Assembly (NCBI RefSeq): GCF_030013595.1
Contig: NZ_CP122768.1
DNA length: 64,000 nt
Strand: one strand, 5' to 3'
Source of the DNA: Escherichia coli
GTDB lineage: Bacteria; Pseudomonadota; Gammaproteobacteria; Enterobacterales; Enterobacteriaceae
Under the pieces are notes generated by a model. That model had not been told where the DNA came from and made no database searches. It saw only the letters and a list, made by a program, of their open reading frames with translations. Every line of letters starts with the position of its first letter. Position 1 is the first letter of the stretch. The position numbers were made by a program, and so were the translations under genes. Positions 1-57,232 of the stretch are shown here, piece by piece.

Positions 1-737
1 TGGAAACATTAGCAAAAAATGCCGATGTGGTTTTATCGCGATCTTATTTATGTGCCGAAGTATGGAAGAACCGTATTGTCGGCGGAAACAGCCTACCGAC
101 GGCGATCCATGCATTGCGCGTTGCTATCGATGATGATGGCAAACAACAGAACATTATTAAAACCATCCCGAAAAAAGGTTACCTGTGCAATAAAGAGTAT
201 GTGTCTTTGCCGGAGTCATCGCCTGCAGAAGCGCTGATTATTACCGACCAGATACAGGATACAGCCCCAGAAGAGATATCTTCGACAACACCGCCTGTGC
301 CTGTCAGAAAAAAACATAAAGGACTGATGGGGTTAGCCTTGACCGCGGCTGTTATATTTATTGGCTCGACCGTGGGGTATTCACACTTGAAAAATACACC
401 TGACGCCCCGCAGCTGGTAAAAGAGTCAATTAACAGTCCAAGAATAAAAATATTTCATCTTAGTTCTGGAAAAGAAAATAATTCTGTACCGTTACTGTCA
501 CAAACCCTCGCACCAGGAAAAGACAAACTCGATAATTTATTGTCAGCGCATAATATGACAATGACAACCTATTATAAATATGTTCGTAACCGACTGGAGA
601 GTGATATTGTTCTGCGCAACCAGTGCAACGGTAGCTGGCAATTAACTTTTAATGTGGATAGCTGGCAGAATAGCGATATTAATAGCGCGATGTATCAGAA
701 TTTAGAGAAGTTGTTAAATACTGTGCAGAAGTGCTGA
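1..737 (+). CDS. lafZ: ToxR/CadC-type transmembrane transcriptional regulator, 5' partial (coding frame starts at position 3)
   Basis: Open frame runs in from the window edge; OmpR-type winged-helix motif (LSRSYLCAEVW ... TIPKKGY), one TM helix (GLMGLALTAAVIFIGSTVGY), C-terminal periplasmic domain; sits after the lafW-like gene as in Flag-2 loci. Confidence 0.6.
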   Translation, partial: ETLAKNADVVLSRSYLCAEVWKNRIVGGNSLPTAIHALRVAIDDDGKQQNIIKTIPKKGYLCNKEYVSLPESSPAEALIITDQIQDTAPEEISSTTPPVPVRKKHKGLMGLALTAAVIFIGSTVGYSHLKNTPDAPQLVKESINSPRIKIFHLSSGKENNSVPLLSQTLAPGKDKLDNLLSAHNMTMTTYYKYVRNRLESDIVLRNQCNGSWQLTFNVDSWQNSDINSAMYQNLEKLLNTVQKC

Positions 738-4183: not shown

Positions 4184-4300
4184 CTGATGCCCTCACCCCG
4201 GCCCTCTCCCACAGGGAGAGGGAGAAAACCTGCGCCATATTCACCTCCGCGCTCAATCGGTCCCCTCGCCCCTTTGGGGAGAGGGTTAGGGTGAGGGGCA
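4184..4300. repeat. Inverted pair of GC-rich palindromic intergenic repeats (core CCCTCACCC..CCCTCTCCC-N4-GGGAGAGGG)
   Basis: Two units in opposite orientation at 4189-4224 and 4262-4298; the same family recurs 5 more times in the window. Confidence 0.85.
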
Positions 4301-6459: not shown

Positions 6460-6570
6460 CCCCTCACCCTAACCCTCTCCCCAAAGGGGCGAGGGGACCG
6501 ATCGAGCACAATGTTGCATACAGCGCCGGTCTGCTCCCTCTCCCTGTGGGAGAGGGCCGGGGTGAGGGCA
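6460..6570. repeat. GC-rich palindromic intergenic repeat, composite copy (near-identical to 16730-16840)
   Basis: cccctcaccctaaccctctccccaaaggggcgagggg ... ctccctgtgggagagggccggggtgaggg; spurious ORFs translate as PLTLTLSPKGRGD. Confidence 0.85.
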
Positions 6571-11056: not shown

Positions 11057-11072
11057 AGCAATCGCTGTGCCA
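11057..11072 (-). promoter_or_regulatory. Sigma-54 (-24/-12) promoter for the lfgB operon
   Basis: Minus strand reads TGGCAC-AGCGA-TTGCT, an exact match to TGGCAC-N5-TTGC, about 35 nt upstream of the lfgB start; a sigma-54 activator (lafK) is encoded in the locus. Confidence 0.6.
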
Positions 11073-12026: not shown

Positions 12027-13451
12027 ATGTCTGAATTTGAATTGCTCGTGAAAGATCTTCTTTTAAAATCAGAAGAAGACGAGAAAAAGCGACAAGAAAA
12101 AGATCGAGAATTAATTTCAAAGGTTCTTGAAATCTATGATCAAAAATATGTTGCAGAACTCCTACGAAAAGTAGGAAAAAATGAATGGAGCAGAGAAACA
12201 CTTAACCGTTGGATAAATGGTAAGTGTAACCCTAAACAATTAACTTCTGCTGAGGAAACTTTACTTCGAAAGATGCTTCCAGAACCTCCCGAACATCATC
12301 CTAACTATACATTTCGTTTTATTGATTTATTCGCAGGGATTGGTGGTATTCGTAAAGGCTTCGAAAATATTGGTGGGCAGTGTGTTTTTACTAGCGAATG
12401 GAATAAAGAAGCGGTAAGAACCTACAAAGCTAATTGGTTTAATGATGAACTAAATCATAAATTTAATCTTGATATACGAGAAGTCACTTTAAGTGATAGA
12501 GATGATGTTTCCGAAATGGAAGCCTATAATCATATAGACAAAAATATTCCAGATCATGATGTCCTTCTGGCCGGTTTTCCATGTCAGCCCTTTAGTCTGG
12601 CTGGGGTAAGCAAGAAAAATTCTCTGGGGCGTGCACATGGTTTTGAATGTGAGGCACAAGGAACACTATTTTTTGATGTCGCTCGAATTATTAAATCAAA
12701 AAAACCAGCTATTTTTGTGCTTGAGAATGTGAAGAACCTTAAAAGTCATGATAAAGGTAAGACTTTTAAAGTCATCATGGAAACACTCAATGAATTAGGG
12801 TATGAAGTCGCCGATGCTGGTGTGACTGGCTCAGATGATCCTAAAATTATAGATGGAAAACATTTTTTACCCCAACATCGTGAGCGTATAGTGTTGGTAG
12901 GATTTCGTAGGGATCTAAATATTCACAAGGATTTCACGTTACGAAATATTAACCGCTTTTACCCTCAAAACAGGCCAACATTTGGTGAATTATTAGATCA
13001 TGATGTTGACGACAAATATATTTTGACTCCAAGGTTATGGGAATATCTTTACAATTATGCAAAAAAACATGCAGCAAAAGGAAATGGATTTGGTTTTGGT
13101 TTAGTGGATCCTAAAAATCCAGATAGTATCGCACGAACGCTGTCTGCTCGTTACCATAAAGATGGCTCTGAAATACTGATCGATCGTGGCTGGGATAAGG
13201 CTGTCGGTGAAATCGATTTTAGTAATCCAGCGAATCAAGAGAATCGACCAAGAAGACTGACACCTCATGAATGTGCCAGGTTAATGGGTTTTGAAAAACC
13301 AGGGGGAAGACCTTTTAGAATACCTGTATCAGATACTCAAGCTTATAGACAATTTGGGAACTCAGTTGTTGTGCCAGTATTTGAAGCTGTAGCAAGATTA
13401 CTAGAACCGTACATACAAAAGGCTGTCAGCATGCAAGTTATTAACGATTAA
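12027..13451 (+). CDS. DNA (cytosine-5)-methyltransferase, Dcm / M.EcoRII-like
   Basis: 474 aa; C5-MTase motifs [40 protein letters not shown]; close to E. coli Dcm along its length; AT-rich codon usage unlike its neighbours. Confidence 0.9.
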
Positions 13452-13538: not shown

Positions 13539-14744
13539 TTATATAAAATCTTCATACAGCGTTATTAACTGTGTGATAAAACCCTCTAACGTTAATAATC
13601 CATCCCTGATTTCCTCCGGATATTTTTTATGAAGAGGGGAAGGTACAACCAAGGTGACACCTTCAGCTCTCATTTCGTTAAATTGAGCAACTGAGACACC
13701 CTCTTGTAAGGTAAACAAATATATTTTGTTGATTTTATTTGCTTCATTGAGTGCCTGACGCCACCGATCCTTACATGTTGTTTTTACAGCAAGCATACGG
13801 AGTTTTTCTCTTGGAAAGTGATCATCATGGTAAGCTGCCGCTGATGGAAAAAGAAAATCGGGTTTCTTTTTTCCTTCAGTAATACATTGAGTAGCAAAAT
13901 GATGCAGTCCATGCTCAATAAAAATTTGCTCAAGATGTAGCTCCAGTGATTTCCCGGCTCGAGATTTTCTTCGATTACTAACAGAGTTAGCCATAGCTAT
14001 AAAATCATCTACAGAACCAAACCCTTGACGGATGATGTCCAGTACGTGAATTTCTTCAACCATTAGAAAGAGATCATATTCAATACGGCGGCGTTCTAAA
14101 AGTTGGTCATCTGGACTGGTTACGCCTGTTGGGTAATAACCCGCAGCATATTGAATAATCTCTAAGCCAGAAGGAAAGCTATGTTTCCAGCTTTCCGGAA
14201 TAACATATTCCTTTTGAGAGATTTTTGGCCTTGATGCGAGTACACCAAGTATTTCACTGGCAGGCCCAAACATTAAAGTTCCAGGAATGATCTCCCCAAT
14301 AGCTGATTCCAGTACATCCTCTTCTTCTGGGCTAACACAAACCCATACATCAACACTTTTGCTGTCTCTCCCTGGCTCATGTTCAAACGCAAGCACAGAC
14401 AAAGCACCTGTATTTTCCGGATCCTGTAGGGGACTGCCAGCCCCCCACCGAGTGATGCGTTTTTCATTTCTTGTTTGCCCGAAATACTTATTATTGTAGT
14501 AAATAGCGCGAACCTCACTGTCTACACATTCATGAGAGGAATAAGTTGCGCGCAATAAAACCGAAGGATTTTTTTCTGACGTATGATCTATAGATGGGAA
14601 AAGTTCAGCGACGATACCAGAAGGGATATATACCCCCACTTGATGCCCTCCTGTTGCACCAGTGTCGTTTGCTGAAAGACGTTTAATATAGAGATAGTTG
14701 TTACCACCGACCTTATCAAGCAGCCAATCTTGTAATCCTGACAT
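13539..14744 (-). CDS. Type II restriction endonuclease, EcoRII family (expected target CCWGG)
   Basis: 401 aa; N-terminal YIKRLSANDTGATGGHQVGVYIPS and the remainder match my recollection of EcoRII; convergent with the Dcm-like gene as in EcoRII systems; AAGGA ribosome-binding site upstream. Confidence 0.8.
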   Translation of the reverse strand: MSGLQDWLLDKVGGNNYLYIKRLSANDTGATGGHQVGVYIPSGIVAELFPSIDHTSEKNPSVLLRATYSSHECVDSEVRAIYYNNKYFGQTRNEKRITRWGAGSPLQDPENTGALSVLAFEHEPGRDSKSVDVWVCVSPEEEDVLESAIGEIIPGTLMFGPASEILGVLASRPKISQKEYVIPESWKHSFPSGLEIIQYAAGYYPTGVTSPDDQLLERRRIEYDLFLMVEEIHVLDIIRQGFGSVDDFIAMANSVSNRRKSRAGKSLELHLEQIFIEHGLHHFATQCITEGKKKPDFLFPSAAAYHDDHFPREKLRMLAVKTTCKDRWRQALNEANKINKIYLFTLQEGVSVAQFNEMRAEGVTLVVPSPLHKKYPEEIRDGLLTLEGFITQLITLYEDFI

Positions 14745-15728: not shown

Positions 15729-15745
15729 CGGCACGCTTATTGCAC
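15729..15745 (+). promoter_or_regulatory. Sigma-54 (-24/-12) promoter in front of the hypothetical gene and glycosyltransferase
   Basis: cGGCACG-CTTA-TTGCA matches TGGCACG-N4-TTGCA with exact spacing, 34 nt upstream of the ATG at 15779. Confidence 0.6.
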
Positions 15746-15778: not shown

Positions 15779-16609
15779 ATGAGTTTTATTGAATGTTACG
15801 AACCGGAATACGTGCGCAATTTTATGACGCAATATCCCGATTCGCCTTTGTACATCCGCAAGGTGTGGAAAAACGAGATTCGCCTGAGCCTGATGCTGAC
15901 AGAGCCAGAAAGTTGCGAAGCGGTGCTCAACGATGCCAGGGCCTTTGATTTACAGCTCACCTACCGCCCGGCGGAAGAAAATGCCGCAGAGCTTTCCGCG
16001 CGCGATGCGATAGTAAACCAGGTCATTTTGAGTACCCTCACGCTCCCCGATTTAACCCCAGAGCTTTCACTATATGCCATCGGGATTTTACTCTCCCGCG
16101 CCAGCAAAATGCCGGGCAGAGACGGAGATATTCTTGCCCGTTTGACGACGCTGCCGCAGGCGCTGGCCGATCATGCGAAAAAAGGCACGCTACAGGCACA
16201 GTTCGCCCAACTTCCGCCCGTGCCACAGCTGGCGCGTCACCTGGCCACGCTACTCGGGAGTTTTACGTTTGACTGGTCGATTTTGCCGGAAAGCCCGCGC
16301 AAAACTTCGCTGCCGTTGCAGATGCCTTTGCTGGCGCTACATGACGCCAACAGCGAAGCCCTGGTGCAACAGCAGCTTCAGGCTCAGTGGCAAACCACCT
16401 GGCAACAGCATTTTGCCACCGCGCCCTGGATGATGCGTAACTGGCTGATTTACCGCGTTTACCATGAGGTGATTGGACAGGCAGACGGAGCAGATTATTG
16501 CCCGCTGGTGTGCGATTTTTATCTTATCCGCACGTTAATCAGTTTTATGGACGCTGGATGGTTCTCCGCTGCGACAGGAGGATATTTTCGCCCTTTTTGC
16601 GGTGTTTGA
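15779..16609 (+). CDS. Hypothetical protein (Flag-2 accessory)
   Basis: 276 aa ORF from the ATG after the sigma-54 promoter; the 3' end may be frameshifted (see findings). Confidence 0.55.
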   Translation: MSFIECYEPEYVRNFMTQYPDSPLYIRKVWKNEIRLSLMLTEPESCEAVLNDARAFDLQLTYRPAEENAAELSARDAIVNQVILSTLTLPDLTPELSLYAIGILLSRASKMPGRDGDILARLTTLPQALADHAKKGTLQAQFAQLPPVPQLARHLATLLGSFTFDWSILPESPRKTSLPLQMPLLALHDANSEALVQQQLQAQWQTTWQQHFATAPWMMRNWLIYRVYHEVIGQADGADYCPLVCDFYLIRTLISFMDAGWFSAATGGYFRPFCGV

Positions 16610-16729
16610 ACGCTGGCGAGAGAGTGAAAATGCGCTGTTTATTCGCCAGCAAATTCAGTCGTTATGTGCGGCAGAGCCGCTGCTTTCAGCATTTTCGCTG
16701 CTGACGTGAGTCGCTCTGTGCGCGCTTTT

Positions 16730-16840
16730 CCCCTCACCCTAACCCTCTCCCCAAAGGGGCGAGGGAACCGATCGAGCACGGTGTTAAAATCGGCGCTGGT
16801 TTTCTCCCCTCTCCCTGTGGGAGAGGGTCGGGGTGAGGGC
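16730..16840. repeat. GC-rich palindromic intergenic repeat, composite copy (near-identical to 6460-6570)
   Basis: cccctcaccctaaccctctccccaaaggggcgagggaaccgatcgagcac ... ctccctgtgggagagggtcggggtgaggg. Confidence 0.85.
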
Positions 16841-23403: not shown

Positions 23404-25027
23404 TGCTGGTGATCCATTGTCTGAGAACTTCGGCTACGCGATCGGTGTCGCTCATGGCCAGTTTTTGCAGGAACTCGAGTTTTACTTCGAGGCCGGAACT
23501 CTGGGACGGCAGGCTGTCATCACCAGGCAGCGACGGCAGGTCGACGTTTTTGCGCTCCTCTTCCGGCATGGCAATCCACGGTTCGCTGACAGCTTCCGGT
23601 TCTGGTGTGATAACTGGCGCACGTACCGCCGTCAGCCGTTTCATCAGTGGGCGCACCACGAACAACAGCAACAACAGCGCCAGCAGGCCACAGCCAATCA
23701 GCCGCACCCAGGCCAGCACGCTGTCATCTTTCCACAGCGGAATAATTGGTTCGACCGGCATCGCCTGCGGGACAAAGTTAAGCAGCGATAAGGTGAGATT
23801 GTCACCGCGCTGGACGTCAATCCCGGCGGCATTGTTCAGCAACGCGGTCAGTTGCGCAGTCTGCTCCGGCTTCCAGTTTTTCAGCGCCGGGGCGTTTTGA
23901 TTGAGCACCACCGCCACGTTAAGGCGTTTCACCGCAAATCCGGGATGCTGAATATGCTGGACGCTGCGGTCGTAAGAGTAATCGCGCTTGCTTTCGCTGT
24001 GTTTCGAAAGCGCTTCCGGCGAGCGGTTTTCTTCCGTGCCGTTGGTCATTTGATTCGCCGCAACCGGCGGGCGGTTGCTGAGCGAACCGGGCACGCCCAT
24101 CGCCACCTGGTTAGTGTCGCTGTCCAGCACGCTCTCTTCGCGGTTGATTTTCGGCGCGTCGCCGTAGTGTTCCTGGGTTTCGTCGATGGTACTGAGGTCG
24201 AGATCCGGCATCACGCTGACGCGGTAATTCCCCGTACCAACCAGCGAATCCAGCACGTTCGCCACGCTGGCGCGGGTTTTGTCCTGGATATCTTTGAGGA
24301 TCTGATCGCGTTTACGGGTGGCGGCAGAAACCGCCTCGCCTGCGCCAATGCCGTCGGTCAGCAGATTTCCCGCCTGATCGACGACGCTAACTTTGCTGGC
24401 GTGCAGCCCCGGAATGCTGTCGGACACCAGATGCACAATGGCGTTCACCTGGTCCATATTCAGCTTCGCGCCGTAGTGCAGGCGCACCACCACCGAGGCG
24501 CTGTTTTGCGGCTCATCGCTGACCACAAACGAGCTTTCTTCGTTAAGCGCCAGATGCACCCGTGCGCTCTCCACCGCGTCCAGCGACATAATGCTCTGCG
24601 CCAGCTCCCCTTCGAGGCTGCGTTTGTAGCGCACGTTCTGCACGAACTGGCTGCTGCCGAGCACTTCGTCTTTGTCCATCAGCTCGTAGCCGCTGGGCAA
24701 TATCGCCTGCACGCCTTTGGCGGCAAGGGTCATGCGCGTTTTCGACAGTTCATCTTCCGGCACCAGAATTTGCCCGCTCTGCGGGTCAATGCGGTAGCTG
24801 AGCTTTTCACCGTCCAGCACGGTGACAATCTGCGACACAGGCAGATTTTCCTGGCGTCCGTAGAGCGAGACGTAGCCGCGATTACCGGTCCACAGCACAC
24901 TAACGATAATCGCCGTCGCCGCAACGGCAAGCCCCACTCCCGCCATCAATGCCCAGCGTTTGTTATCTGCAAGACGCAGTCGAAACGCCGGAAACGCCTG
25001 GGTTAACTTATTTATTTGTGCATTCAT
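23381..25027 (-). CDS. lfiF: Flagellar MS-ring protein FliF
   Basis: 548 aa with N- and C-terminal TM segments. Confidence 0.9.
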   Translation of the reverse strand: MNAQINKLTQAFPAFRLRLADNKRWALMAGVGLAVAATAIIVSVLWTGNRGYVSLYGRQENLPVSQIVTVLDGEKLSYRIDPQSGQILVPEDELSKTRMTLAAKGVQAILPSGYELMDKDEVLGSSQFVQNVRYKRSLEGELAQSIMSLDAVESARVHLALNEESSFVVSDEPQNSASVVVRLHYGAKLNMDQVNAIVHLVSDSIPGLHASKVSVVDQAGNLLTDGIGAGEAVSAATRKRDQILKDIQDKTRASVANVLDSLVGTGNYRVSVMPDLDLSTIDETQEHYGDAPKINREESVLDSDTNQVAMGVPGSLSNRPPVAANQMTNGTEENRSPEALSKHSESKRDYSYDRSVQHIQHPGFAVKRLNVAVVLNQNAPALKNWKPEQTAQLTALLNNAAGIDVQRGDNLTLSLLNFVPQAMPVEPIIPLWKDDSVLAWVRLIGCGLLALLLLLFVVRPLMKRLTAVRAPVITPEPEAVSEPWIAMPEEERKNVDLPSLPGDDSLPSQSSGLEVKLEFLQKLAMSDTDRVAEVLRQWITSNERIDNK

Positions 25028-25031
25028 AGGG

Positions 25032-25373
25032 TTAGATCGACATACTCATCAGATCGTTAAATCCGGTGGCGATTTTGTTGCGCACCTGCACCAGCGCGGA
25101 GAACGAGAGCGATGCCTGCTGGCTGGCGATCATCGCGCCGGCCAGGTCATCGCTTTTACCCAGGTCGATTGCCGTTTGCTGCTGCTCCGCCACCTGCTGG
25201 AACTGGTCAACGTGACCGAGCGCACCGCTCATAATGCGGTTAAACGACACGTCCGGGTCGGTGGAACTGAAGGTCATGGCGGGCAGCACCGGTGCCTGGG
25301 CGTTGGCCTGCATCCGCTGCACGTCCTGCATGATTTGCGCCTGCATGGTGCTGTTGATTGTGGTAATGCTCAT
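25032..25373 (-). CDS. lfiE: Flagellar hook-basal body protein FliE
   Basis: 113 aa; FliE family. Confidence 0.85.
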   Translation of the reverse strand: MSITTINSTMQAQIMQDVQRMQANAQAPVLPAMTFSSTDPDVSFNRIMSGALGHVDQFQQVAEQQQTAIDLGKSDDLAGAMIASQQASLSFSALVQVRNKIATGFNDLMSMSI

Positions 25374-25387
25374 TTTTAACTTCCGGG

Positions 25388-26374
25388 TCAGGAGAAAACT
25401 TCAATACCGTGCTTGCGCATGGAGGCCAGTCGATAGCGCAGTGCGCGCGGGGTAATGCCTAACAGGTCGGCAATTTTGCTGCGGTTGCCCTGATATTTAC
25501 GCATCAGGTCGGCGATATATTGATACTGGGCGCTACGTCCGGCCTGGCCTAAATCGCTGGTTTCCGCAACAGATACGGAGGGCTGAATGGGCCATTGCAG
25601 TTCGCTGTGGTCGGCAATGTCATTTTCCGGCAGGCCTAACGCGTCCGGGTAAATCACGCCGTCGCGATTTAAAATCATTCCCCGCTGAATGGCGTTTTCC
25701 AGCTGGCGCACATTACCCGGCCAGCGGTAATTCAGCAGCGCACGGCGGGTAGATTCCGAAAGGGTGATATTTTTCACCAGCACCGTGGAGTATTTTTTAA
25801 TAAATGACTCTGCCAGCGGAATAATATCGTTCAGACGTTCACGCAGCGGCGGCATGGTAATAGGAATAACCACCAGACGATAATAGAGATCTTCACGAAA
25901 ACGCCCTTCGGCGACTTCCTGCTCAAGGTTTTTATTGGTGCAGGCAATCAGGCGAAAATTGAGTTTAATTTGTCGGTTGCTGCCTAATCGCTCAACCTGT
26001 TGTTCCTGCAATACGCGTAATATTTTGGCCTGTAATGCCAGCGGCATATCGCCAATTTCATCGAGCAATAAGGTGCCGTTATTTGCCAGTTCCATTTTGC
26101 CTGGCACGCTGGCAATTGCGCCGGTAAATGCGCCTTTGTCGTAGCCAAATAATGTAGCTTCCAGCATGTTTTCCGGGATCGCCGCGCAGTTCACGCCGAC
26201 ATAGGGTGCGCTTTCATTTTCACCAAAGGCTACGGTGTGAATATATTTTGCCACGCACTCTTTGCCCGCGCCGGTTTCGCCCTGAATGAGCACCGGCACG
26301 TTAAATGCGGCGACACGCTTTGCCAGAGTAAAAGCGTTAATGCTGGAAGCGGCAGTTGCAATAAGTTCAGACAT
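25388..26374 (-). CDS. lafK: Sigma-54-dependent transcriptional activator (AAA+ domain plus C-terminal HTH, no N-terminal regulatory domain)
   Basis: 328 aa; Walker A GETGAGKE within 35 aa of the N-terminus; GAFTGA-type loop; C-terminal Fis-type HTH; an in-frame stop 26 codons upstream rules out a longer N-terminus. Confidence 0.85.
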   Translation of the reverse strand: MSELIATAASSINAFTLAKRVAAFNVPVLIQGETGAGKECVAKYIHTVAFGENESAPYVGVNCAAIPENMLEATLFGYDKGAFTGAIASVPGKMELANNGTLLLDEIGDMPLALQAKILRVLQEQQVERLGSNRQIKLNFRLIACTNKNLEQEVAEGRFREDLYYRLVVIPITMPPLRERLNDIIPLAESFIKKYSTVLVKNITLSESTRRALLNYRWPGNVRQLENAIQRGMILNRDGVIYPDALGLPENDIADHSELQWPIQPSVSVAETSDLGQAGRSAQYQYIADLMRKYQGNRSKIADLLGITPRALRYRLASMRKHGIEVFS

Positions 26375-26527
26375 AGGGTGAACGATATAAGTAGCGACAA
26401 TAATCAGGATGTTCTGAAGCGTATCACCGGCGGGATTAACAAGTTCGAATTAAACGATAATAAAAATATTATTTGATGGTAAACAATGAGTTAGATATTA
26501 ATACTGTTAATTTGGACATCTGTGATG

Positions 26528-26568
26528 CCCCCTCACCCTAACCCTCTCCCCGGATGGGGCGAGGGGAC
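26528..26568. repeat. GC-rich palindromic intergenic repeat, single unit
   Basis: cccctcaccctaaccctctccccggatggggcgaggggac in the lafK / lfiM divergent region. Confidence 0.8.
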
Positions 26569-26746
26569 AGACCGCAGACTGATTGGCGAAAATCACTCCC
26601 ATTAAGCAATTAATCGATTAATTATTTTTTCATCCTATTAATAATTTGCCCCTTTCACTCCCCCTCTATTTAATACCTCACCTTGTGTCACTGCCGGATT
26701 TGCGTGCACAAAATCGCCCATACCATTACAGCAGAGAAAGTAAGCC

Positions 26747-27598
26747 ATGCTGAAGTACAGTAAAACGCCAGGCATCTTTAAATTAGAAGGTAATCGGCTC
26801 GGACGCCCCTACCATCGCCTGCCGACCCTGTTTACGGGGAATTTTGACGTGATTGATTCGCATCTTGGCAGCTACTTTCTCAAAAAGCATCGCAGCAATA
26901 TCACCTTAAAAAAGATTGGCTGCGAAATGGATATTATTAATAAAAACGCCGAGCTGATGGTTTCCCAGGTCGGGCATCTGGCGTTTGATATTGATCGCTC
27001 CTTGCTGTTAATGCTGCTGGGCAATTTTTATGGTCTGGAGTCGTCTCTTGAAGAGGCGAAAGACCATAATGGCCTGCCGACCAAAACCGAAACGCGGTTA
27101 AAGAACCGCCTCGCGCTGGATATCTGCACGCTGATTTTTAATCTGCAAACCTCCGGTATTGCGCTGAAATTAAAGCTGGATAGCAGCACGGTGATTACCC
27201 ACTGGGCGTATCAATTAACCTTTACCCTCGCGGGTGATGAAGAGAGCAGTTTTCGTATTTTGCTCGACGACGCCCATACCGATTTTATTTTAAATCTGAT
27301 CCGCCACAGCGAGCACAGTAAACCGCAGCAGGTGGCAAAATCGGTTAATAAACCGGCCCTGATTAAAGAAATCATCCGCTCCCTGCCGCTGACCCTGAAC
27401 GTCAAAATCGCCGAGCTGTCGATGAATGTCGCCGATCTGGCGCAGATAAAAGCCGGGGATATTTTACCCATCTCGCTGGGAGAAACGTTCCCGGTGGCGA
27501 TTGGGCAATCTGAATTATTTAGCGCCCTGATTGTGGAAGACAAAGACAAACTGTTTTTGTCGGAGCTGGCGGGCAAAAATGAGAATAGCCATGAGTAA
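26747..27598 (+). CDS. lfiM: Flagellar motor switch protein FliM (short lateral form)
   Basis: 283 aa; first gene of the lfiMNPQR-lfhBA operon. Confidence 0.8.
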   Translation: MLKYSKTPGIFKLEGNRLGRPYHRLPTLFTGNFDVIDSHLGSYFLKKHRSNITLKKIGCEMDIINKNAELMVSQVGHLAFDIDRSLLLMLLGNFYGLESSLEEAKDHNGLPTKTETRLKNRLALDICTLIFNLQTSGIALKLKLDSSTVITHWAYQLTFTLAGDEESSFRILLDDAHTDFILNLIRHSEHSKPQQVAKSVNKPALIKEIIRSLPLTLNVKIAELSMNVADLAQIKAGDILPISLGETFPVAIGQSELFSALIVEDKDKLFLSELAGKNENSHE

Positions 27599-56015: not shown

Positions 56016-56483
56016 ATGCTTAAACAGGTAGAAATTTTCACCGATGGTTCGTGTCTGGGCAATCCTGGACCTGGGGGTTACGGCGCTATTTTACGCTATC
56101 GCGGACGCGAGAAAACCTTTAGCGCAGGCTACACCCGCACCACCAACAACCGTATGGAGTTGATGGCCGCTATTGTCGCGCTGGAGGCGTTAAAAGAACA
56201 TTGCGAAGTCATTTTGAGTACCGACAGCCAGTATGTCCGCCAGGGTATCACCCAGTGGATCCATAACTGGAAAAAACGTGGCTGGAAAACAGCAGACAAA
56301 AAACCAGTAAAAAATGTCGATCTCTGGCAACGTCTTGATGCTGCGCTGGGGCAGCATCAAATCAAATGGGAATGGGTTAAAGGCCATGCCGGACACCCGG
56401 AAAACGAACGTTGCGATGAACTGGCTCGTGCCGCAGCGATGAATCCCACACTGGAAGATACGGGCTATCAAGTCGAAGTTTAA
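56016..56483 (+). CDS. rnhA: Ribonuclease HI
   Basis: 155 aa from [23 protein letters not shown]; matches E. coli RnhA. Confidence 0.95.
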
Positions 56484-57202
56484 GCCTGTGGTTTACGACA
56501 TTGCCGGGTGGCTCCAACCGCCTGGCGAATTCGTGGCTTGTTTTTACTCTGTTTCATCGGATTTAGCGTTAAAGGAATAGTCCGTTTCCGGGCGACAATA
56601 AGTTGTAAGCAACCAAGCGCAGGAATATGCGCATTCAATAGTTTTCCACCGTGTTTGTTCCACGGGAGAACGTGGAAACGGCTGGCGTGTAGCACTTCAA
56701 AATTCAACAAAGAGAGCCAGTCCAGCTGCCGCATCAGAGTAAACATCCGGCTATTATAGGGCGAGGTTTTGCGCAATACCGGCACAAGTTTTCGTAATCC
56801 CATTAAACTGATGGGATTGAAGCCACTAATCACCAGCCAGCCATCATCAATCAATACCCGATCGGCTTCACGCAATAAACGATGCGGATCGGTGCACCAC
56901 GGCAATGTATGTGCCAGTAGACAAACATCAACGGATTTATCGGCAAAAGGAAGATGAAGTGGGTCCGCCTGCACCTGGACGGGCATTCCTTGCGCAGAAA
57001 CATTCACTTGATGAGAAACCGCGCACGCTTCGCAATTGATTTCTGCGCTTAAATTGCCAATCTTAAGCAGATGAAAACCATACATTTTAGTGAACCACGG
57101 GTTGAGCTGGCGCTCCAGCGCCTTGCGATAAAGCTCTCCCCAGGGCAAATCGCCCCAGCAATCAGGAGCCACGACAGTTTGAGGGACTCTTGCCGGTTTC
57201 AT
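56480..57202 (-). CDS. yafS: SAM-dependent methyltransferase YafS
   Basis: Start chosen at [11 protein letters not shown] (the ORF allows 6 more codons upstream); conserved K-12 neighbour. Confidence 0.85.
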
Positions 57203-57232
57203 CACAACCTTCCGTTTCACACTGAGAGGTAA

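Follow-up and report, generated by a model that had tools for sequence, protein, structure and literature searches.

FlrC and FleR, which are encoded directly 5' of fliE in polar flagellar clusters and activate rod and hook genes with sigma-54, carry the same type of helix-turn-helix (HTH) as LafK, but FlrC must be phosphorylated on D54 by FlrB, whereas E. coli LafK has no receiver and the annotated Flag-2 locus contains no histidine kinase gene. FleQ and FlrA are likewise sigma-54 activators of flagellar systems; they differ from LafK in having a FleQ-type N-terminal domain and another HTH (…TLVEKMRKY), and only 42-45% of residues are identical. The type Ic enhancer-binding proteins PspF and HrpR/HrpS are built, like LafK, of an AAA+ domain plus an HTH, with Walker A about 30-37 residues from the N-terminus, and LafK shares the defining trait of this domain-less type, having no N-terminal regulatory domain that could act in cis. 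PspF shows only 39% AAA+ identity to LafK, however, and serves a different regulon; anti-activators of PspF and HrpS are encoded nearby, whereas none is recognizable in the LafK locus. Francke et al. (2011) grouped LafK with PspF and HrpRS as activators without a signal-recognition domain (PMC3162934). Receiver-less LafK is thus already on record, and the observation of it in the DNA studied here, though correct and reasonably interpreted, is an ordinary one that will not surprise the specialist. The entry of Francke et al. cites Vibrio LafK (PMC3162934), and on this detail the literature needs correcting: the Vibrio prototype does have an N-terminal domain, a degenerate receiver that sits below the Pfam threshold.

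The window, by which we mean the whole 64,000-nucleotide stretch of E. coli contig NZ_CP122768.1 that was analysed, includes ORF 25388-26374, which is lafK; its product is the enhancer-binding protein that acts with sigma-54 in the lateral-type (Flag-2) flagellar system of E. coli. The region is 99.9% identical to two pig isolates, and of 5426 complete E. coli genomes 1409 have a chromosomal match to it, about a quarter carrying Flag-2. The annotation of the best-matching strain, HCP5S3_I2 (99.9% over 24900-26800), describes a Flag-2 secondary flagellar locus that runs from flgB-L homologues and flgA through a restriction-modification pair, flgMN, a lysine-N-methylase and a glycosyltransferase to fliJIHGFE, lafK and the divergent fliMNPQR-flhBA, with yafL, dpaA and fadE as flanks. 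This order is the published Flag-2 layout, lfhAB-lfiRQPNM-lafK-lfiEFGHIJ (De Maayer et al. 2020, PMC6993521), and the gene is therefore lafK. It lies within a lateral-type cluster, directly 5' of fliEFGHIJ and divergent from fliMNPQR-flhBA, and its product is 93-98% identical to the 328-aa E. coli clusters, so that both position and orthology bear out the LafK-type identity given in the preliminary description. LafK of E. coli 042, reportedly described with Flag-2 of that strain by Ren et al. in 2005, and of enterobacterial Flag-2 generally, is the same gene at the same position, also of 328 aa, with no essential difference. Since only 14 nt separate lfiE from the lafK stop, and the scan of the lafK strand showed no terminator-like site, lafK most likely heads a lafK-lfiEFGHIJ operon. 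The coordinates of these and other features are collected in Table 1.

Two other parts of the locus may be recorded here. Inserted between lfgA and lfgM the window holds a gene for a C5 cytosine methyltransferase on the plus strand (12027-13451) and one for a restriction endonuclease of the EcoRII type on the minus strand (13539-14744). The lysine-N-methylase gene lafV (about 15780-16710) is annotated as frameshifted in HCP5S3_I2; in the window its ORF stops at 16609 and is followed by a copy of the GC-rich repeat described in the last section.

Table 1. Coordinates of lafK, its sequence motifs and other features of the window
Feature	Position	Strand	Remarks
lafZ, 3' part	1..737 (partial gene 27-737)	plus	winged-helix Trans_reg_C regulator; gene cut by window edge
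Sigma-54 promoter upstream of lfgB	11057..11072	minus	TGGCAC-N5-TTGCT (exact consensus TGGCAC-N5-TTGC)
Sigma-54 promoter-like site	15729..15744	plus	CGGCAC-N5-TTGCA, one mismatch; about 36 nt 5' of annotated lafV and glycosyltransferase
lfiE	25032..25373	minus	FliE-like; starts 14 nt past lafK stop; lfiFGHIJ follow
lafK coding sequence	25388..26374	minus	328 aa: AAA+ sigma-54 interaction domain, lid, Fis-type HTH
HTH_8 DNA-binding domain	25424..25525	minus	residues 284-317 (Pfam)
Walker B, D105-E106	26057..26062	minus	both invariant in alignment
GAFTGA loop (sigma-54 contact)	26117..26134	minus	residues 81-86, intact; invariant columns G81, A82, T84, A86
Walker A, GETGAGKE	26258..26281	minus	residues 32-39
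Divergent lafK/lfiM control region	26375..26746		372 bp, 42% G+C
In-frame TAA	26450..26452	minus	26 codons 5' of lafK start
Candidate sigma-70 promoter of lafK	26457..26486	minus	-35 TTGTTT, 18-nt spacer, -10 TATTAT
Window's allele of control-region middle	26528..26568		in 57/1284 E. coli genomes
lfiM	26747..27598	plus	FliM/FliN family; first gene of divergent lfiMNPQR-lfhBA operon

Reading frame and domain content of LafK

The boundaries of the ORF are exactly those given above, on the minus strand, with an ATG start at 26374-26372. Pfam recognizes Sigma54_activat at residues 6-172 (PF00158, E 7e-64), AAA_lid_14 at 178-246 and HTH_8 at 284-317, and no domain in the N-terminal part ahead of Sigma54_activat; among the NCBIfam models, LafK aligns to the central and C-terminal parts only of NifA, FlbD, NorR, NtrC and others, and its match to the PspF model runs from model residue 7 onward. 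Walker A begins about 30 residues from the N-terminus, just as the preliminary description had it, and its statement that LafK has no receiver or FleQ-like input domain agrees both with the empty N-terminal Pfam result and with an alignment with LafK, FleQ and FlrA homologues, in which the input domain is absent and E. coli LafK falls nearer to the FlrC/FleR/LafK proteins than to the FleQ-like ones. Walker A, Walker B (LLLDE), the GAFTGA loop, the FRxDLxxRL element (here FREDLYYRL) and WPGNVR are all intact. With its Sigma54_activat domain and this set of motifs LafK has what marks a sigma-54 activator, and it is predicted to drive ATP-dependent activation of sigma-54 promoters, the candidate targets being the sites upstream of lfgB and of lafV in Table 1.

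No Shine-Dalgarno sequence is recognizable ahead of lafK, which could be taken as a sign that the start is mis-called and that an input domain comes from a non-canonical start further upstream or through a frameshift. An upstream start of this kind giving a receiver was looked for and not found. The stop reported 26 codons upstream is indeed there, a TAA, and none of the 25 codons between it and the lafK start is ATG, GTG or TTG; translation in the lafK frame reads ...IIV*FELVNPAGDTLQNILIIVATYIVHP-MSELIATAASS..., and the two remaining frames are crowded with stops. The whole intergenic region comes to only 372 bp and must also house two promoters. Atlantibacter, Hafnia and Budvicia each have an in-frame stop 3-13 codons before the start (3-24 codons when Citrobacter is included), and the N-terminal alignment starts of E. 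coli, Citrobacter and Atlantibacter agree (MSELIA, MFELIA and MSDLIA), so that the chosen ATG is supported by conservation at residue 1-2. A mis-called start is in our judgment extremely improbable, all the more as the long relatives that might speak for it (P0055, P0061 and P0078) are chimeric assemblies.

These three proteins, which have receiver or ACT domains, were considered as ancestral full-length LafK and rejected. They come from short metagenome contigs, and in each a foreign activator N-terminus switches to a LafK C-terminus at the conserved FREDLYYRL. The N-terminus of P0055 is the start of another response regulator, while that of P0061 we take to be the E. coli NtrC sequence and that of P0078 presumably TyrR. 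Such chimeras could mislead surveys of domain architecture. The HMMER search of 1.84 billion representatives, which returned mostly double-AAA+ fusions and generic response regulators, gave no clean boundary to the LafK family and served only for choosing short and long relatives.

Vibrio and enterobacterial forms of LafK and their wider lineage

LafK of Vibrio parahaemolyticus (P0409), of 443 aa, is encoded in the context motY_L-lafK-fliEFGH with fliMNPQR divergent. Like the E. coli protein it activates lateral flagellar genes through sigma-54; the two agree in synteny and in type of HTH and are about 53% identical over the AAA+ region. Unlike the E. coli protein, it has kept a receiver-like domain, and motY_L stands ahead of it in the operon. 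Its residues 6-112 cover the whole Response_reg profile with 22.7 bits (E 1e-4), which falls below the Pfam cut-off of 30.2 bits, and close relatives score higher (P0142, E 6e-6; P0140, 59 bits). Relative to NtrC, EP stands in place of the acidic DD, Ser in place of the phospho-acceptor Asp and Arg in place of the conserved Lys, and the receiver is therefore degenerate and non-phosphorylatable. The additional N-terminal domain is found in the LafK relatives of Vibrionaceae and Shewanella (431-465 aa), and is absent from E. coli LafK and all its enterobacterial orthologues, the start of the E. coli protein corresponding to the linker/AAA+ boundary of the Vibrio one. Enterobacterial LafK is thus a further-reduced version, and FlrC, Vibrio LafK and enterobacterial LafK, set in series, therefore describe a stepwise loss of signalling input. 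The genuine difference in length between the Vibrio prototype and the shorter enterobacterial protein is a modest addition to what was known. The 90%-identity cluster that contains V. parahaemolyticus LafK (P0355, 443-444 aa) also holds 340-aa proteins of the MotY family, the product of the gene adjacent upstream of lafK; this looks like a clustering artefact.

The longer Vibrionaceae and Shewanella proteins raise the question whether the short gene is a decayed, N-terminally truncated pseudogene of the 443-aa Vibrio type. Flag-2 loci are often damaged (PMC6993521), lfgC is frameshifted in strain 042 and lafV is annotated as frameshifted in the strain that best matches the window, all of which would fit such decay. 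The short form is, however, present in all the enterobacterial genera examined, with nearly equal length and start: the orthologues at 60-98% identity, from Escherichia, Citrobacter, Leminorella, Atlantibacter, Scandinavium, Pantoea, Budvicia, Pragia, Hafnia and Regiella, all have 324-348 aa, they form one clade with 100% bootstrap support in a neighbor-joining tree, and the gene order around lafK is the same in Citrobacter, Atlantibacter, Hafnia and Budvicia. The catalytic motifs are all intact, and a comparison of lafK from E. coli and Citrobacter gives a dN/dS of 0.05 (dN 0.12, dS 2.3), from which the short LafK is evidently the functional form. Nor is there any remnant of a receiver 5' of lafK: tblastn with ten receiver domains in five genera, the upstream regions of the other genera being AT-rich and 434-641 bp long, gave chance-level matches only. 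Conservation from residue 1-2, the dN/dS value and the intact motifs together effectively rule out a decayed gene as well as a mis-called start, and the pseudogene reading, to which we give very little credence, would seem to be refuted already by the conservation data. The missing receiver-like domain is subfamily variation, and the membership of the protein in LafK stands.

Of the solved structures, 4qhs, the V. cholerae FlrC AAA+ domain, matches best (253 bits), with weaker matches to NifA, NtrC1, NtrC, FleQ (222 bits), FlrA (212) and PspF (185). AAA+ identity follows the same order, from 48-56% with the FlrC/FleR/LafK-type proteins to the lower values already given for the FleQ-like ones and PspF, and the HTH motif of LafK, GITPRALRYRLASMR, is common to FlrC/FleR/LafK-type proteins and is not that of the FleQ type. 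The position directly 5' of fliE is also that of flrC/fleR in polar clusters. LafK therefore has the AAA+ and HTH similarity and the fliE-adjacent position of the FlrC/FleR group, while lacking its receiver and cognate kinase; of the traits of FleQ/FlrA it has neither the FleQ-type N-terminal domain nor the R-N pair that follows Walker A, the positions of FleQ R185/N186 being K43/Y44 in all enterobacterial LafK proteins. The LafK clade thus resembles FlrC/FleR more than FleQ, a placement that is new, if modestly so.

Receiver-less relatives at the fliE-proximal position recur in other Gammaproteobacteria. A Pseudomonadales genome (L002) has the order flagellin-flaG-fliD-fliS-fleQ-kinase, then a 350-aa receiver-less homologue, then fliEFGHIJ, and three further short homologues, one of them from Steroidobacteraceae, also lie directly 5' of fliE. 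In the tree the receiver-less forms fall in at least three lineages besides the enterobacterial one; the deep branches are poorly supported, and a sister relation of enterobacterial to Vibrio LafK is therefore not claimed. The recurrence of receiver loss at this position is another modest addition. In L002 (7240-9053) the gene for a 251-aa HisKA/HATPase kinase ends 5 nt before that of the receiver-less activator in the FleR position, which leaves the kinase without an adjacent receiver partner.

Control of Flag-2 through lafK

The divergent lafK/lfiM region consists of conserved blocks adjoining each gene and a polymorphic middle of some 123 bp. The lafK-proximal block is conserved among E. 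coli genomes and, in part, in Citrobacter and further genera, and inside its Citrobacter-conserved part lies TTGTTT-18-TATTAT (3/6 matches at -35 and 5/6 at -10), a possible sigma-70 promoter of lafK that falls below the threshold of a consensus scan. A search of the intergenic region for sigma-54 promoters, requiring GG-N10-GC and a match at 8 or more of 11 consensus positions, found none. An exact sigma-54 consensus does stand upstream of lfgB, as was also reported for strain PCN033 (PMC4578781), and is presumed to be a target of LafK; the second site, ahead of lafV and the glycosyltransferase, has one mismatch. Another exact sigma-54 consensus, TGGCACATACATTGC, occurs outside Flag-2 at 56902-56916 (minus), inside ORF 56480..57220.

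The preliminary description held that the lafK promoter region is the main decision point of this flagellar system. The near-consensus sites at lfgB and lafV, which are plausibly spaced from their genes, with no sigma-54 site at lafK itself, fit control through lafK expression, and that much of the claim is supported, the part that concerns LafK activity being conjectural. The mechanism that we consider probable is that LafK, a member of the FlrC/FleR/LafK lineage reduced to an AAA+ motor and a Fis-type HTH, is a self-assembling activator controlled by its expression. On this model a promoter of the sigma-70 type, situated in the AT-rich stretch between the divergent lafK and lfiM, would drive lafK along with lfiEFGHIJ, the genes for MS-ring, C-ring and export ATPase. 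With no receiver to restrain it, LafK would be constitutively active, assembling into rings by itself and binding its enhancers, and through ATP hydrolysis and the GAFTGA loop would open two sigma-54 promoters, that of lfgB, which leads to the rod, hook and ring genes, and that of lafV/glycosyltransferase. Co-expression with early basal-body genes would thereby take the place of the FlrB-FlrC two-component checkpoint of polar systems, and the on/off decision would be made at the lafK/lfiM control region. Kim and McCarter (2004) are reported to have found that V. parahaemolyticus grown in liquid turns on polar genes when LafK is supplied ectopically. The AAA+ domain of FlrC, taken by itself, assembles into heptamers whether or not nucleotide is present, no receiver being needed (PMC6504787), and lafK of Aeromonas is a class I, sigma-70-dependent gene (PMC4481668); it is from these three observations that we infer self-assembly and sigma-70 expression of LafK.

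Several observations stand against this mechanism. One study places lafK among the RpoN-controlled promoters of V. parahaemolyticus (PMC9817140), and PspF and HrpRS, which have no cis domain, are yet controlled in trans (PMC7057263). The receiver-less relative in L002 adjoins a kinase gene, the candidate sigma-70 promoter is a poor match that the consensus scan missed, and lafK has no Shine-Dalgarno sequence. The preliminary description's further claim, that truncated activators of this kind are usually constitutively active and controlled through their own expression, was put too strongly: the isolated FlrC AAA+ domain does self-assemble, but PspF and HrpRS are restrained in trans.

The trans-controlled systems suggest another possibility, which we hold only tentatively, namely that LafK is intrinsically active but restrained post-translationally by a partner or ligand acting in trans, so that expression alone would be insufficient. 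Candidates are an anti-activator of the PspA, HrpV or FleN type, a flagellar assembly intermediate, or c-di-GMP acting on the AAA+ domain. The best-studied domain-less activators are regulated in this way, PspF by PspA and HrpRS by HrpV (PMC7057263), and in FleQ the AAA+ domain is the point at which FleN and c-di-GMP exert control (PMC9303241; see also PMC8528422). A kinase gene abuts the receiver-less relative in L002, and LafV of V. parahaemolyticus represses surface-regulon genes 'in the presence of LafK'. Against this, clusters 1 and 2 of the locus show no obvious gene for a candidate partner or anti-activator. In addition, neither W56 of PspF, the contact for PspA, nor R185/N186 of FleQ, the contact residues for c-di-GMP, is conserved at the corresponding positions of LafK, which hints against those interfaces only. 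A wider form of the idea, which we regard as rather doubtful, is that the receiver has been lost several times, each independently, at the FlrC/FleR position, in enterobacterial Flag-2 and in at least three other gammaproteobacterial lineages, one of them with the gene beside that of a kinase, and that the checkpoint has perhaps passed to an unrecognized anti-activator acting in trans or to an assembly intermediate that binds the AAA+ domain. If true, such a replacement of the two-component checkpoint would give lateral flagella a control circuit of a new kind.

The identity of the gene is unchanged by any of these results. If LafK itself senses nothing, the signal that switches on Flag-2 need be sought in three places only: the 372-bp lafK/lfiM region, LafZ or nucleoid proteins acting there, and a trans-acting partner of LafK. 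LafZ, described as a putative transmembrane regulator (PMC6993521), is a candidate upstream regulator; a literature search, whose matches were mostly irrelevant, returned no functional data on it.

The middle of the control region (26495-26617) is dimorphic in E. coli, the last of our modest additions. The window has the minority allele, which carries a GC-rich palindromic dispersed repeat; the majority allele has at the same place what we take to be a REP/BIME-like pair of similar length. The 23-nt core of the GC-rich repeat, GGGGAGAGGGTTAGGGTGAGGGG, occurs in four exact copies (4276-4298, 6460-6482, 16730-16752 and 26529-26551), all of them intergenic in the Flag-2 locus, against a chance expectation of 0, and the element is dispersed in E. 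coli, at a median of 13 places per genome. The control region also has a perfect 16-bp AT-rich palindrome, AATTAATCGATTAATT, at 26608-26623, and an imperfect relative of it, ATTATCGTTTAATT, at about 26448-26463 in the conserved lafK-proximal block, with a counterpart, AATTATCGATTAATT, in Atlantibacter; AATTAATCGATTAATT and ATTATCGTTTAATT may be a regulator site.
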